A stretch of 64,000 nt of DNA from Escherichia coli (GTDB lineage: Bacteria; Pseudomonadota; Gammaproteobacteria; Enterobacterales; Enterobacteriaceae), in NCBI RefSeq assembly GCF_003991155.1, contig NZ_CP031293.1; one strand, 5' to 3'. How positions within the stretch are numbered: position 1 is the first letter of the stretch; each line of letters begins with the position of its first letter. The translations under genes and the position numbers were made by a program. Below, piece after piece: positions 33,057 through 35,130 of this stretch. Below the pieces are notes generated by a model. The model was not told where the DNA came from, searched no databases, and saw only the letters and a program-made list of their open reading frames with translations.

Positions 33057-34520
33057 TTATTTACATGCATATAACCTTCTGAAATTACTATAACAGTGCT
33101 CGTTCTTACTACCACTACAACGTTGTTCATCATATTCAGCGATTAAAGTTCCAGATATATAACCAAACTGAGGGCTATACGTTGACCCCGGACAGGCACA
33201 TGTCCCTGTATCACTATTCGGTATTACACACTTATATCCAGATACTTGATCGGTTATTGTTATAAAAATACCTTTCAGGCCATCACCACTTGCTGTCTGC
33301 CATTTACCACTGACACACGATAACACTCGGCCTGTACTGTCTCGCCCCACCAGACCATTAGGCGTACATTTCGCATTTAACGTTGCCTGACCATTTAAAT
33401 GGAGATATTCACCTGCTTTGATCCTGCCAGTTGATTCAATTGTTCCATTGGATTTTATCGTTCCGGCGGTAAGATTACCTGACGCATAAATATTACCCGC
33501 ATTGTTCATGTAAGCTTTAACTGTTTTACCGGTTCCTACACCAACAGTCCCTGACGCATACAAGTCATAGGTGCGAACACCGCCAGCCCAGCCAGCTGGC
33601 AGATCGTTTGGATTAAGTCCGTTCGTGGCAATACGACTACCAAATCTCGCCAGACCTGTTGTTGAAAGCGTATTCAGATAAGTATCGGATTTTACCTTCA
33701 GGTTGTTGTTGATATTTACAGGACCATTAAGGGTAGATGTTCCACCCACAGTCAGATCTGATGCAACAGACGCATTACCCGTGGTTTTCAGTGCTCCGGT
33801 TGTTGTTGTCCCTGATGCCGTCATATCTTTGATGTTTTTGATGCTCTTACCACCAAGATTCAGATCACCCGTCATCGGCAACGTTCCATCACGGCGCAGA
33901 TAAACAGAATACATTGAAGAGTTATACCCCACGCGGTAAGCCAGCAATCCACCACCCGTAATATTGCTGTAGCTGTTAGAGTTCTCACTCCACTGACCAC
34001 CATAGCCGGAAGCTATCTTGGTGTTTCTGCTCATCCCACCATCAACACCTGCCGCCTGAACCGCTTTACCTAACAGGTCATAACGAATACGACCACCTTC
34101 TTCCCACGGGCTGGCGGTTGTTATAAGGCCGTTAATGACATAATCAGGCGCTGTTCCTGAACGCTTTAACACAATCTTATAGGATGCTTTTTGCGCGTTA
34201 GTTCCTGTATAGCCTACAGGCAACAGACCTTCATTAATTAACGTCTGGTAAGTGATTTCACAACCAGCAGCCGAACATGTTCTTGGCCCCGGATCGCTAC
34301 TTTGATTGTTGGATGATGACAGTGTGGAAATCTTGTCATATCGAATACTGATATAGCGGTTAACCGCTTCACCAAGCTGTTTAATCTGTGTTCCAACATT
34401 ATCTGCTAATACCGCTTCCTGATTGTTTCGCATATCCTGAAACTTCATAAAAGCGATAAGCGTTCCAATACCTAAAACAATACTGACTTCCAGTAAGGTA
34501 AATCCTTTATTCTTTATCAT
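33057..34520 (-). CDS. Type IV pilus minor pilin/adhesin, PilV-like (487 aa)
   Basis: N-terminal prepilin motif [19 protein letters not shown], long Gly/Thr/Asn-rich C-terminal region as in IncI-type thin-pilus PilV. Confidence 0.65.
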
Positions 34521-34572
34521 AATTATCTCCCTGTTTTGGCAATAAGAAAGAAAAGGGCTTACGCCCTCTTCA

Positions 34573-35130
34573 TTAAATAGACGTGAAAACTAATGTATTA
34601 CTTGTGGCATTCGTACATGCTGCTGCCGTAGCTGCCACATCGAGTGTTCCTCCTGCGGCTTTAACAACCTTGGTTCCAACCGTGGTAATGTAGAAATTAC
34701 CTGCTGCCGCTGTCGCAATCTTCACACATTCCGCTGCTGGCACATTATCGTATGTGATAGTGAAAGAAGAGCCAGCCGCTGATGATGGTCCTGTAGCTGT
34801 AGCAGCCAGCGTCACATTACCTTTAAAGGCATTAATGGGTTTAGCTGCCGTTCCTGACCCACTTAACATATTGTCAGGGAAGATTTTTGCCTGAACAGCC
34901 ACAGTATTTGTCAGGCCAGTAAAGCTTGATGCCGACGTGTATAATGCTTTAACACCTGCCTGTATGGTGGCAATGTTATTGGATTCTGCCTGCGCTCTTT
35001 GTGAAGCCTGAACCTTGGGATAAACGATAAAAGCCGCTACCACTAATGCAGCAATGATGCCCAAAACAAGTAATAGTTCGAGTAGTGAGAAACCTTTCTT
35101 GCTTTTTCTTTTGTTATTTAATAAAACCAT
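34573..35130 (-). CDS. Type IV prepilin, PilS-like major pilin (185 aa)
   Basis: Leader followed by [24 protein letters not shown], Ala/Thr-rich body, Cys pair near C-terminus. Confidence 0.7.

Follow-up and report, generated by a model that had tools for sequence, protein, structure and literature searches.

An intact pilS/pilV module on a mobilizable serU island of Escherichia coli, with prepilins probably assembled in trans

The serU island of the UPEC strain CFT073, which also harbors tcpC, carries two pilin genes already described as c2394/c2395, or "type IV pilus two" (PMC3855560). A CFT073 mutant lacking both genes was at a competitive disadvantage in bladder, kidney, spleen, and liver and adhered less well to human bladder and kidney cells, and adherence was restored by complementation. 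Fewer pili were seen on the mutant by electron microscopy, an observation for which the authors consider immunostaining necessary, and overexpression of c2394-95 lowered the motility of CFT073 (PMC3855560). Host-cell adherence and in vivo fitness are the demonstrated output of the pair in CFT073, and a role of these genes in UPEC is documented both for adherence and for fitness in infections of the bloodstream and urinary tract (PMC3855560).

The pair is also known as the pilin module of the ROD21/EARL islands (PMC3198454, PMC6035254). These are excisable, low-GC elements with H-NS paralogues that encode a P4-like integrase, a recombination directionality factor (RDF), a TraD homologue, a MobA/MobQ relaxase, and a pilin with a pilus-related open reading frame (ORF), without a type IV secretion system (T4SS) (PMC6035254, PMC10763509). 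Their family includes ICEKp258.2, carried by epidemic carbapenem-resistant Klebsiella pneumoniae ST258 (PMC10763509). Of 56 EARL islands, 52 retain the pilin ORFs (PMC6035254), and SEN1978, SEN1976, SEN1979, and SEN1980 of ROD21 are 93, 76, 87, and 84% identical to c2395, c2394, c2396, and c2397, respectively (PMC3198454). More distant relatives are found in the thin pili of IncI1 (R64) and IncI2 (R721, TP114) plasmids, which have in common with the island pair their Pfam families, a type IVb fold, and the layout and junction of PilV. The IncI systems, however, possess the PilL-PilU machinery, including the PilU peptidase, as well as Rci and sfx repeats, all of which the island pair lacks. In IncI pili the variable tail of PilV is the specificity determinant, and PilS and PilV of TP114 function when supplied in trans (PMC9045228).

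The stretch of E. coli DNA analyzed here, a window of 64 kb, contains an island of 21.9 kb between 14-bp direct repeats. Its integration site is the tRNA-Ser(CGA) gene serU (52861-52950, minus strand; ARAGORN, sequence, and RefSeq), whose 3′ end (52861-52874) is the second repeat copy; the distal copy, TGGCGGAGAGAGGG (30925-30938, repeat family D9), represents the att core at the integrase end. The island encodes a P4-like tyrosine integrase (31103-32323, plus strand; Pfam Arm-DNA-bind_3, Phage_int_M, and Phage_integrase), the two pilins, and, directly upstream of pilS, a TraD-like small relaxosome accessory protein of the Ti-plasmid TraD family (35526-35831, minus strand; PF06412, 41.9 bits). 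A MobQ-family relaxase (38338-39819, plus strand; Pfam MobA_MobL, 183 bits; NCBIfam MobQ, 248 bits for a cut-off of 200) and an AlpA-family small DNA-binding protein (51312-51530, minus strand; Phage_AlpA, 67.5 bits), a candidate excision (recombination directionality) factor, are also present. The cargo includes the type I Thoeris system ThsA/ThsB and, adjoining pilV, a gene for a VOC protein; in other copies of the island, the slot beside pilV holds genes for TIR proteins or nucleases. According to the RefSeq annotation, a nearby tRNA-Asn gene (53942-54017) carries another integrase.

The CFT073 island likewise lies in serU, with zinT on one side and mtfA/asnT on the other, and has the same gene order, int-x-pilV-pilS-traD-mobQ...RepL-H-NS-AlpA-DUF6387-serU, a backbone common to both. 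PilV and PilS of CFT073 also have 487 and 185 residues, with approximately 95.6% nucleotide identity to the genes of the window. The cargo differs: CFT073 has another hypothetical gene beside pilV, tcpC, a TIR protein gene, and a macro-domain gene, whereas no tcpC is annotated in the island of the window. Judged by sequence and gene order, the element is a version of the CFT073 serU (tcpC) island with different cargo, related to the ROD21/EARL islands, and the pair in the window is a rediscovery of described genes.

The island resembles the EARL islands in its integrase, its candidate RDF, and its direct repeats, and also in its TraD-like protein, MobQ relaxase, and pilins in the absence of a T4SS. 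EARL islands are, however, defined by insertion in an Asn-tRNA gene, a conserved direct repeat, and an integrase clade (PMC6035254), whereas this island lies in serU; in addition, the integrases of CFT073 and ROD21 are only 25% identical (PMC3198454). The island thus has its transfer and pilin module, not its integration module, in common with the EARL family. A reading of the DNA made from the sequence alone (hereafter, the sequence-only reading) had proposed that the pilin genes may be remnants of an integrative conjugative element (ICE). We find instead that they constitute a conserved backbone module of nonconjugative mobilizable islands defined by integrase, AlpA, TraD-like protein, and MobQ, i.e., an intact pilS/pilV module of an integrative mobilizable element without T4SS or pilus assembly genes.

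Both pilin ORFs noted in the sequence-only reading are intact on the minus strand. The gene of the major pilin, pilS (34573-35130; 185 residues), is the orthologue of c2395, and pilV (33057-34520; 487 residues), encoding a minor pilin or tip adhesin, is the orthologue of c2394. PilS matches Pfam PF08805 (PilS) with 98 bits for a cut-off of 22 (E = 6e-28) and the Bundlin profile with 34.8 bits, and PilV matches PF04917 (Shufflon_N) over residues 84 to 405 with 53.6 bits for a cut-off of 27.5 (E = 3e-14); these Pfam matches are beyond chance. The N_methyl profile of Pfam is passed by PilS (26.9 bits; cut-off, 21.2) and missed by PilV (19.5 bits), while TIGR02532 accepts both (24.0 and 19.1 bits; cut-off, 16.3). 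The genes are true homologues of pilS and pilV of IncI thin pili. That part of the earlier proposal, which likened the locus to the end of an IncI pilus operon, stands, but the adjacency of the two genes does not fit: they follow each other directly here, with 52 bp between them, whereas the IncI order is pilS-pilT-pilU-pilV.

Both proteins have the features of a class III signal peptide, i.e., a short basic leader, Gly at position -1, Glu at position +5, and an N-terminal hydrophobic alpha-helix of approximately 20 residues, and the KGFxLLE motif reported earlier was read correctly. The leader of PilS has 13 residues and is followed by the cleavage site G13|F14 (KKG|FSLLE), and that of PilV has 6 residues and precedes G6|F7 (MIKNKG|FTLLE). 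GFSLLEL is present in 112 of 120 PilS homologues, and G6, F7, and E11 of PilV are invariant among 48 homologues diverged by approximately 50%. The AlphaFold2 (AF2) model of PilS (pLDDT, 87) was compared with known structures using Foldseek, which returned the type IVb major pilins CofA (2e-7), PilS of Salmonella Typhi (9e-6; TM score of 0.72 on the target), and TcpA (3e-5), and only this class; type IVa pilins and pseudopilins had E values above 1. The model thus predicts a type IVb pilin fold for PilS.

In their leaders, type IVb major pilins differ from type IVa pilins by greater length (approximately 15 to 30 residues) and a residue other than Phe at position +1. PilS, with its 13 residues and Phe, does not follow this pattern, nor does its gene have those of an ATPase, a platform protein, a secretin, and a peptidase alongside, as in type IVb operons. 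Phe at position +1 is the rule in the PilS subfamily (124 of 150 representatives). The leaders of IncI2 PilS and PilV have 27 and 7 residues and end in G|A and G|V, and those of IncI-gamma/K1 have 23 and 11 residues and end in G|W; in contrast, PpdD of CFT073 has a leader of 6 residues and G|F, like the island pilins with 13 and 6 residues and G|F. Identity between island and IncI pilins is only 26 to 29%.

PilV has the architecture of an IncI shufflon adhesin, composed of a prepilin helix, a constant body, a conserved junction, and a variable tail. It is 26.6% identical to IncI2 PilV over 410 residues, and the Shufflon_N match extends to the last position of the profile at residue 405. The junction between constant and variable parts (residues 385 to 407; 33300-33368, minus strand) is conserved relative to IncI PilV, with an identity of 64% over approximately 33 residues to IncI2 and of 63% over 30 residues to IncI-gamma/K1, and its residues C385, C402, G405, and W407 are invariant in homologues. 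In the IncI-gamma/K1 plasmid, sfx maps to the SCQSGTW codons, within the CxSGxW part of the junction. The Cys-rich C-terminal tail that follows (residues 408 to 487; 33060-33299, minus strand) is the presumed receptor-binding tip. At least 18 unrelated tail types were found after the junction among 114 PilV homologues, some pairs of which have near-identical bodies and different tails. The ratio dN/dS is 0.19 in the tail versus 0.06 to 0.08 in the body, and PilV as a whole is conserved at approximately 50% across genera, versus 75 to 85% for PilS. PilV has one fixed tail, and its diversity in the population comes from the exchange of tails at the junction, not from inversion of DNA segments. 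AF2 modeling of PilV from a 48-sequence alignment was poor (mean pLDDT, 52; pTM, 0.28), with confidence confined to residues approximately 340 to 410, and a sequence search of PDB chains with PilV gave no match at an E value of 1 or less; the body of PilV may need an oligomeric context.

A GC-rich hairpin followed by a T-run was revealed by a terminator scan directly 3′ of the pilS stop codon (34550-34571, minus strand). It is kept in nine E. coli copies, and in Affinibrenneria, Pectobacterium, Brenneria, and an additional locus (L004), the corresponding site is occupied by a hairpin of different sequence. The hairpin is terminator-like and is probably an attenuator that sets the PilS:PilV ratio. 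The intergenic region upstream of pilS (35131-35525, minus strand) contains a strong Shine-Dalgarno sequence, AAGGAGATAATAATG, and presumably the promoter. Promoter-like hexamers in this region were no more common than in shuffled sequences, and therefore the pilS promoter was not located.

The orphan status of the pair in the 64-kb window was borne out. Queries with PilN, PilO2, PilP, PilQ, PilR, PilT, PilU, and Rci of IncI2 yielded no match in the window (tblastn, E ≤ 1e-4), and only PilS (28.6% identity) and PilV (26.6%) did so. For an identical E. coli chromosome, the annotation in RefSeq covers approximately positions 11000 to 59900 of the window and contains no pilus assembly gene, and no prepilin peptidase gene is present in the window. 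Shufflon repeats were likewise not found: no 19-mer of the island matched the sfx consensus, verified on the shufflon of a real IncI-gamma/K1 plasmid, with five or fewer mismatches, and the one that is homologous to sfx by position (33300-33318) differs from it at nine positions. The P4-like integrase is the sole recombinase of the island.

The site G|F(S/T)LLE is common to the pseudopilins GspG and GspH of type II secretion systems (T2SS), and weak NCBIfam matches to such proteins, limited to the N-terminal 50 residues or so, could indicate that the two genes encode pseudopilins of a T2SS whose gsp cluster lies at another genomic site. The GspG, GspH, and GspJ models nevertheless scored only 16 to 24 bits for cut-offs of 65 to 89 (80 to 89 for GspG and GspH), and the PilS/Bundlin and Shufflon_N profiles are matched by the globular domains above the Pfam cut-offs; the PilS model matched type IVb pilins down to 2e-7, while the EpsG pseudopilin had an E value above 1. 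A pseudopilin identity, which would have overturned the first assignment, thus has next to no probability, and we rejected it on the grounds that the GspG/H/I/J/K models score far under their cut-offs and recognize the N-terminal motif only.

The pair was found in 566 of 5,426 complete E. coli genomes (10.4%), in all cases on the chromosome, i.e., approximately 1 in 10 complete E. coli genomes carries it. All nine E. coli copies that were compared are intact, and across them dN/dS is 0.066 for pilS and 0.094 for pilV, with a dS of approximately 0.23 to 0.26, indicating strong purifying selection on both genes. In 13 loci of other genera with approximately 50% PilV identity, no gene for PilN, PilO, PilP, PilQ, PilR, PilT, or PilU lies within 10 kb. 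TraD/MobQ accompany PilV in these loci wherever the contig is long enough, with the TraD-like gene adjoining that of PilV in 9 of the 13. An island of Yersinia pseudotuberculosis beside smpB shows the same picture. By these comparisons, the orphan arrangement is ancestral.

The distribution also bears on the idea that the pair is a functionless, decaying remnant of an ICE or of an IncI pil operon. The lack of machinery in the window would agree with decay, as would the few E. coli copies that are partial or interrupted by an insertion sequence and the annotation of pilV as a pseudogene in ROD21 of Salmonella Enteritidis (PMC3198454). ROD21 transfer was also unchanged by deletion of its mobA homologue (PMC3976249); given these two findings, the module is not indispensable everywhere. 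Selection on both genes and nine intact copies out of nine nevertheless contradict decay, as do the orphan layout kept at approximately 50% protein divergence in many genera, the invariant cleavage motif, and the experimental phenotypes of CFT073 (PMC3855560). We therefore rejected decay, which the selection analysis makes very improbable; the 13 machinery-free loci of other genera likewise speak against it as it had been raised for this locus.

We consider it probable that the intact pilS/pilV module of this serU mobilizable element yields prepilins that are assembled in trans, with a chromosomal apparatus of the host as the likeliest assembler. In this mechanism, PilS and PilV would be made as prepilins, with the terminator-like hairpin after pilS making PilV scarcer than PilS, and both would be cleaved at G|F by a prepilin peptidase whose gene lies elsewhere than on the island. 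PilS and PilV would then form an adhesive filament in trans, or PilV would join the filament of another major pilin, and the PilV tail would decide what the filament binds. The assembler would most likely be a GspO/PppA-type peptidase with the PpdD-HofBC/HofMNOPQ pilus or the T2SS of the host, because the CFT073 phenotypes arise without a thin-pilus plasmid and because the leaders resemble that of PpdD; ppdD-hofB-hofC are intact in CFT073. Display by machinery encoded elsewhere, one of the options offered at the outset, is thus the reading favored by the function of TP114 pilins in trans, the PpdD-like leaders, and the CFT073 phenotypes. It would nonetheless be unusual for a pilin of type IVb fold to be assembled by an apparatus of the type IVa or T2SS kind, and no demonstration of this is known, which counts against assembly by the host. 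Since the short G|F leader is common beyond orphan pilins, as in the 124 representatives mentioned above and in the metagenomic contig L041, it gives no indication of which machine is used.

Because the pair is invariably linked to traD/mobQ and orphan PilV occurs on other mobilizable elements, a further role in bringing donor and recipient into contact during mobilization is suggested. In a rival reading, the pilins would be inert without a plasmid, and their processing and assembly would depend entirely on the type IVb thin-pilus machinery (PilN-PilU) of an IncI-type plasmid or a pil-bearing ICE in the same cell, re-tipping or rebuilding the helper pilus so that the MobQ-mobilized island reaches recipients set by its own PilV tail. 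SGI1 offers an analogy, as it exchanges parts of the IncC mating apparatus (TraN/TraH/TraG). The likeness is conceptual only, both being mobilizable islands with substitute surface parts for an apparatus built by others, and SGI1 replaces T4SS components, not pilins. Dependence on a helper would also fit the thin-pilus homology of PilS and PilV, their type IVb fold and common junction motif, the traD/mobQ linkage, the acceptance of pilins in trans by TP114 (PMC9045228), and the orphan PilV/PilS on further elements that are not self-transmissible. One of these elements also encodes a homologue of DotA/TraY, a component of IncI-type secretion. Potential helpers are common in E. coli, as thin-pilus pilQR genes of the IncI1 and IncI2 types occur in 731 (13.5%) and 297 (5.5%) of the 5,426 genomes, respectively, these being marginal frequencies.

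Several observations argue against a strict need for a helper. CFT073, in which the adherence and fitness phenotype was complemented, is not known from its published genome to have plasmids or type IVb machinery. The island pilins have low identity to those of IncI plasmids, and their leaders and +1 residues differ. In a tblastn search of 72,556 plasmids, those with pil machinery gave PilV matches of at most 29% identity and no PilS match at 1e-5, so that no close relative of the island pilins occurs on any sequenced plasmid of this kind. The F-type plasmid pSLT is not known to make a type IV pilus; ROD21 was nevertheless mobilized from a donor with pSLT (PMC6035254). We therefore regard exclusive reliance on a helper as rather unlikely.

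An exhaustive HMMER search retrieved 2,893 PilS relatives, and the genomic contexts of six were inspected, mostly short or unannotated metagenome contigs. PilQ- and PilR-like genes lie beside PilS-like pilins with short G|F leaders in L041, an arrangement that speaks for assembly by a helper, and a T2SSE-family ATPase gene adjoins the PilS relative in contig L037. The PilS subfamily is thus not always orphan, and no Enterobacterales helper was identified among the six contexts.

The pair might alternatively act in the envelope without forming a filament, by interfering with a type IV pilus, a T2SS, or a thin pilus and thereby excluding pilus-dependent phages or competing conjugative elements. 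The defense-rich cargo of the islands, i.e., Thoeris here and TIR proteins or nucleases beside pilV in other copies, is consistent with this role, as are the islands L011, L015, and L017, which have PilV and no PilS. FimU-like minor pilins encoded by Pseudomonas prophages provide a precedent in the literature, and the overexpressed pair lowered CFT073 motility (PMC3855560). However, a strongly conserved major pilin and a hypervariable, receptor-type PilV tail are hard to reconcile with interference alone, and the loss of adherence upon gene deletion is a better fit to an adhesin (PMC3855560), which makes an interference role quite improbable.

Assembly in trans, the reading that we prefer, can be extended tentatively to other elements. 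Orphan PilS/PilV might represent a general plug-in adhesin strategy of non-self-transmissible Enterobacterales elements, in which an element encodes just the filament subunit and a tip adhesin, tails are swapped at the old shufflon junction without a recombinase, as in a shufflon of the population, and display is left to PpdD/Hof or to the thin-pilus machine of a helper, so that the choice of recipients or host tissue would rest with the element, whatever conjugative helper moves its DNA. We hold this generalization to be possible but doubtful. The elements that it would cover are the serU/EARL-type islands, plasmids of approximately 40 kb, which carry three orphan PilS-like pilins, and a Mob plasmid of 5.8 kb, which encodes MobC and a relaxase and carries an orphan PilV of the type described here. 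If a mobilizable island does display an exchangeable adhesin on a borrowed pilus machine, this would add a new layer to the setting of host range of mobilizable DNA and would explain the strong conservation of the module. Two strains with an identical island each have a replicon of approximately 277 kb (pMCR1-PA/pAR349).

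Two adjacent ORFs on the minus strand, separated by 52 bp and each preceded by a strong Shine-Dalgarno sequence, code for type IV pilins: pilS (34573-35130, 185 residues) for the major pilin and pilV (33057-34520, 487 residues) for the tip adhesin. PilS matches the Pfam family PilS (PF08805; 98 bits, cut-off 22) as well as Bundlin and N_methyl, and PilV matches Shufflon_N (PF04917; 53.6 bits, cut-off 27.5) over residues 84-405, together with N_methyl. Both proteins have prepilin sites (marked ↓), ...↓FSLLE in PilS and MIKNKG↓FTLLE in PilV. In tblastn searches with the IncI2 protein set, the two genes were the sole matches in the window (PilS, 28.6% identity; PilV, 26.6%), and PilN, PilO2, PilP, PilQ, PilR, PilT, PilU and Rci had none within the 64 kb. 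Likewise, the RefSeq annotation of an identical chromosome lists no pilus-assembly gene in the part of the window that it covers. The sequence-only reading, which had described an adjacent orphan pair without pilus machinery or a shufflon recombinase and had proposed the IncI pilin alignment, is thereby borne out throughout, its coordinates included.

Several complete genomes match the window, a piece of E. coli chromosome, at 100% identity over 8.9 kb. The pair lies inside a low-GC element of 21.9 kb, hereafter the island. Its ends are a 14-bp direct repeat, TGGCGGAGAGAGGG (30925-30938 and 52861-52874), the second copy of which forms the 3' end of the tRNA-Ser(CGA) gene serU. The island codes for a P4-like integrase (31103-32323), a VOC/glyoxalase-family protein in the slot between the integrase gene and pilV (32387-32914, plus strand), a Ti-TraD-like protein (35526-35831), a MobQ relaxase (38338-39819; NCBIfam MobQ, 248 bits) and a type I Thoeris pair (43002-45099, minus strand), ThsB (TIR; PADLOC, 2.6e-85) and ThsA (SIR2 and STALD/SLOG; 8.9e-203). 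It also codes for a full-length H-NS paralogue with both H-NS domains (49360-49764, plus strand), which is probably the serU island's Hfp-type protein, an H-NST-like protein of 80 residues with the H-NS N-terminal domain only (50283-50525, minus strand), an AlpA-family protein (51312-51530), a RepL-like protein and DUF6387. It has no type IV secretion system, and with this gene content it is built as an integrative mobilizable element.

Five ORFs near the TraD-like and MobQ genes (36498-37376 and 39898-41011 on the plus strand, 35828-36193 and 37380-37688 on the minus strand), one of them for a 292-residue protein with a CxxC...H motif, matched no Pfam or NCBIfam family and had no tblastn match at 1e-4 in 13 related loci of other genera. 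The approximately 670 bp from zinT to the distal repeat (30256-30924) hold no annotated gene; as K-12 has yodB between zinT and serU, yodB may be missing or degraded here. Immediately beyond serU and mtfA come a tRNA-Asn gene (53942-54017), another integrase gene of P4 type (54160-55446) and, within 53942-59820, a RelE fragment, an IS3 element and genes for type VI secretion (Hcp and a VasL-domain protein). In CFT073, the yersiniabactin island occupies this tRNA-Asn site.

The serU site of uropathogenic E. coli CFT073 shares the arrangement of the window, zinT-int-x-pilV-pilS-traD-mobQ-tcpC...RepL-H-NS-AlpA-DUF6387-serU-mtfA-asnT, with tcpC and other TIR/macro genes in place of Thoeris. A comparison locus (L019), 95.6% identical in DNA sequence to the window, encodes the same PilV and PilS proteins as CFT073. 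Subashchandrabose et al. picked up c2394 in a Tn-seq screen, and c2394 (pilV) and c2395 (pilS) were named "type IV pilus two"; the mutant lacking c2394-95 was outcompeted in bladder, kidneys, spleen and liver, adhered less to human bladder and kidney cells and to monkey kidney cells, a defect that was complemented, and looked less piliated by electron microscopy, a point for which the authors call for immunostaining (PMC3855560). Quiroz et al. compared ROD21 with CFT073 and reported identities of 76% for SEN1976/c2394, 93% for SEN1978/c2395, 87% for SEN1979/c2396 and 84% for SEN1980/c2397, with integrases that are just 25% identical (PMC3198454). The EARL family of Pina-Iturbe et al., which includes ICEKp258.2 of K. 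pneumoniae ST258, has no type IV secretion system and a backbone, present in 52 of 56 islands, of a type IV pilin, a pilus-related ORF, TraD, a MobA/MobQ relaxase, an integrase and an RDF (PMC6035254, PMC10763509). The window's island has the transfer-plus-pilin module in common with that family, but neither its Asn-tRNA site nor its integrase clade. Both the gene pair and its island family have been published before, mutant phenotypes included, and so are not a discovery.

The pilS-pilV segment was found in 566 of 5,426 complete E. coli genomes, with at least 80% of it in 525; all 575 places were chromosomal, and none was plasmid-borne. In eight divergent E. coli copies (93-96% identity), pilV (1,464 bp) and pilS (558 bp) were stop-free throughout. 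Nei-Gojobori analysis of these copies and the window (nine sequences) gave dN/dS values of 0.066 for pilS (dS 0.26) and 0.094 for whole pilV (dS 0.23), with 0.06-0.08 in the PilV body and 0.19 in its last 82 residues. The gene to the left of pilV varies among E. coli copies (L018-L025 and L027), being for a VOC protein, a TIR protein, a dsDNA nuclease-domain protein or hypotheticals, while pilV and pilS are constant; the pair is therefore backbone beside a cargo slot. A scan of one genome per species yielded 13 loci, in Pectobacterium, Brenneria, Affinibrenneria, Yersinia, Symbiopectobacterium, Tenebrionibacter and others, with PilV proteins approximately 50% identical to that of the window. 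On contigs of sufficient length, PilV is accompanied by a TraD-like protein (9 loci), MobQ (7 loci) and usually PilS, and no PilN/O/P/Q/R/T/U homologue occurs within 10 kb of it in the 13 loci; a Y. pseudotuberculosis island adjoining smpB has the same layout. Because the copies are intact and constrained and the loci of other genera are free of machinery, the orphan state is old and maintained. The alternative that the genes are remnants of an integrative conjugative element is rejected on these grounds.

Three related islands (L011, L015 and L017) have PilV with no PilS-like ORF within 10 kb, and two others (L009 and L010) have two PilV-like genes, G↓YSILE being the site in the second paralogue. 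Within the module PilV seems more constant than PilS, and the islands with PilV only or with two paralogues suggest that it may ride on a foreign major pilin.

The PDB matches of an AlphaFold2 model of PilS (pLDDT 87) were all type IVb major pilins, namely CofA (2e-7), S. Typhi PilS (9e-6; TM 0.72 on target) and TcpA, in agreement with a PDB sequence search that returned BfpA, TcpA, PilS and CofA. Type IVa pilins and the EpsG pseudopilin gave E>1 against the model. The PilS signal peptide departs from the textbook type IVb kind. The leaders of island PilS (13 residues) and PilV (6 residues) end in G↓F, as does that of CFT073 PpdD (6 residues; FTLIE), compared with 27 residues and G↓A for IncI2 PilS, 7 and G↓V for IncI2 PilV, 23 and G↓W for IncI-gamma/K1 PilS, and 11 and G↓W for IncI-gamma/K1 PilV. 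GFSLLEL is found in 112 of 120 PilS homologues, and all of 48 PilV homologues keep G-1, F+1 and E+5.

We favour the borrowed-machinery alternative of the sequence-only reading, in which cleavage and assembly of the pilins would be the work of proteins from genes outside the island. A host chromosomal apparatus is the candidate that we rate somewhat higher: ppdD-hofB-hofC is intact in CFT073, the phenotype was seen in that strain, which is reported to be plasmid-free (Welch et al. 2002), and the island leaders resemble that of PpdD. The leader argument is tempered by the frequency of F at +1 in the wider PilS subfamily (124 of 150 representatives), and by the closest machinery-linked relative found, a 3.3-kb metagenome contig (L041) on which a PilQ-like ATPase fragment and a PilR-like platform protein are followed by two tandem PilS-like pilins (48-54% identity to island PilS, G↓FSLLE, 20-residue leader). 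Also in favour of the host apparatus, plasmids with pil machinery carry no close relative of the island pilins, PilV identity reaching at most 29% and PilS having no tblastn match at 1e-5. The thin-pilus machine of a helper is the lower-rated candidate, to which the type IVb homology of the island pilins, the function in trans of TP114 pilins (PMC9045228) and the frequency of pilQR in complete E. coli genomes (13.5% IncI1-type, 5.5% IncI2-type) lend support.

Structure prediction for PilV was poor (pLDDT 52), and no related solved structure was detectable by sequence. Its constant body has a shufflon-type adhesin layout, ending in a C(S/T)... stretch that is 64% identical to IncI2 PilV and 63% to IncI-gamma/K1 PilV; similarity to IncI PilV is lost beyond this junction. 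Among 114 homologues with the junction, the tails comprise at least 18 mutually unrelated types of 30-160 residues, and some pairs combine near-identical bodies with different tails; phage tail-collar domains occur in some PilV homologues. Across genera PilS is 75-85% identical and PilV approximately 50%, a contrast expected if a conserved shaft carries a diversifying tip that binds receptors. On an IncI-gamma/K1 plasmid the 19-bp shufflon repeat GTGCCAATCCGGTACGTGG was verified, and it coincides there with the SCQSGTW codons of PilV. No 19-mer with five or fewer mismatches to it was found across the island, and the homologous position in the window's pilV (33300-33318) has 9 mismatches. Tail diversity is made by recombination between elements, not by an in-cis shufflon.

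A GC-rich hairpin with a T-run at 34550-34571, 3' of the pilS stop codon, is kept in the nine E. coli copies, and at the corresponding position other genera have a hairpin of unlike sequence. Such a design fits with attenuation that would keep the minor pilin scarce.

Linkage to traD and mobQ suggests that the module, besides host-cell adherence, also serves transfer through donor-recipient contact, and orphan pilins on other non-self-transmissible elements point in the same direction. A role in transfer is tempered by ROD21, whose transfer is independent of its mobA homologue (PMC3976249) and whose pilV is annotated as a pseudogene (PMC3198454), and by E. coli copies with an IS-disrupted or partial pair. 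That mobilizable elements in general use orphan pilS/pilV as plug-in adhesins is an idea that we hold tentatively and consider rather doubtful. The exchangeable PilV tail may determine which recipients the island can reach.

A Klebsiella aerogenes plasmid of 5,841 bp (NZ_CP103670.1) carries an orphan island-type pilV (plasmid positions 3657-4829, minus strand; junction CSPNGLQGR...SCINGVW), which takes up a fifth of its length; its five other genes are for an HTH protein, a probable relaxase, MobC and two hypotheticals. NZ_CP026209.1 (42.7 kb) and about 60 similar plasmids of Klebsiella, Enterobacter, Citrobacter and Salmonella, 30-45 kb in size and typed as "non-mobilizable," have three orphan PilS-like pilin genes and no pilus machinery; the pilins have G↓FSL(L/I)E sites and up to about 49% identity to island PilS. 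These plasmids also carry a DotA/TraY-family protein and an LPD7 protein, the latter an annotation likewise given to the IncI2 relaxase region, along with a DUF927 protein, a type III RM system, several methylases, ankyrin proteins and H-NS.
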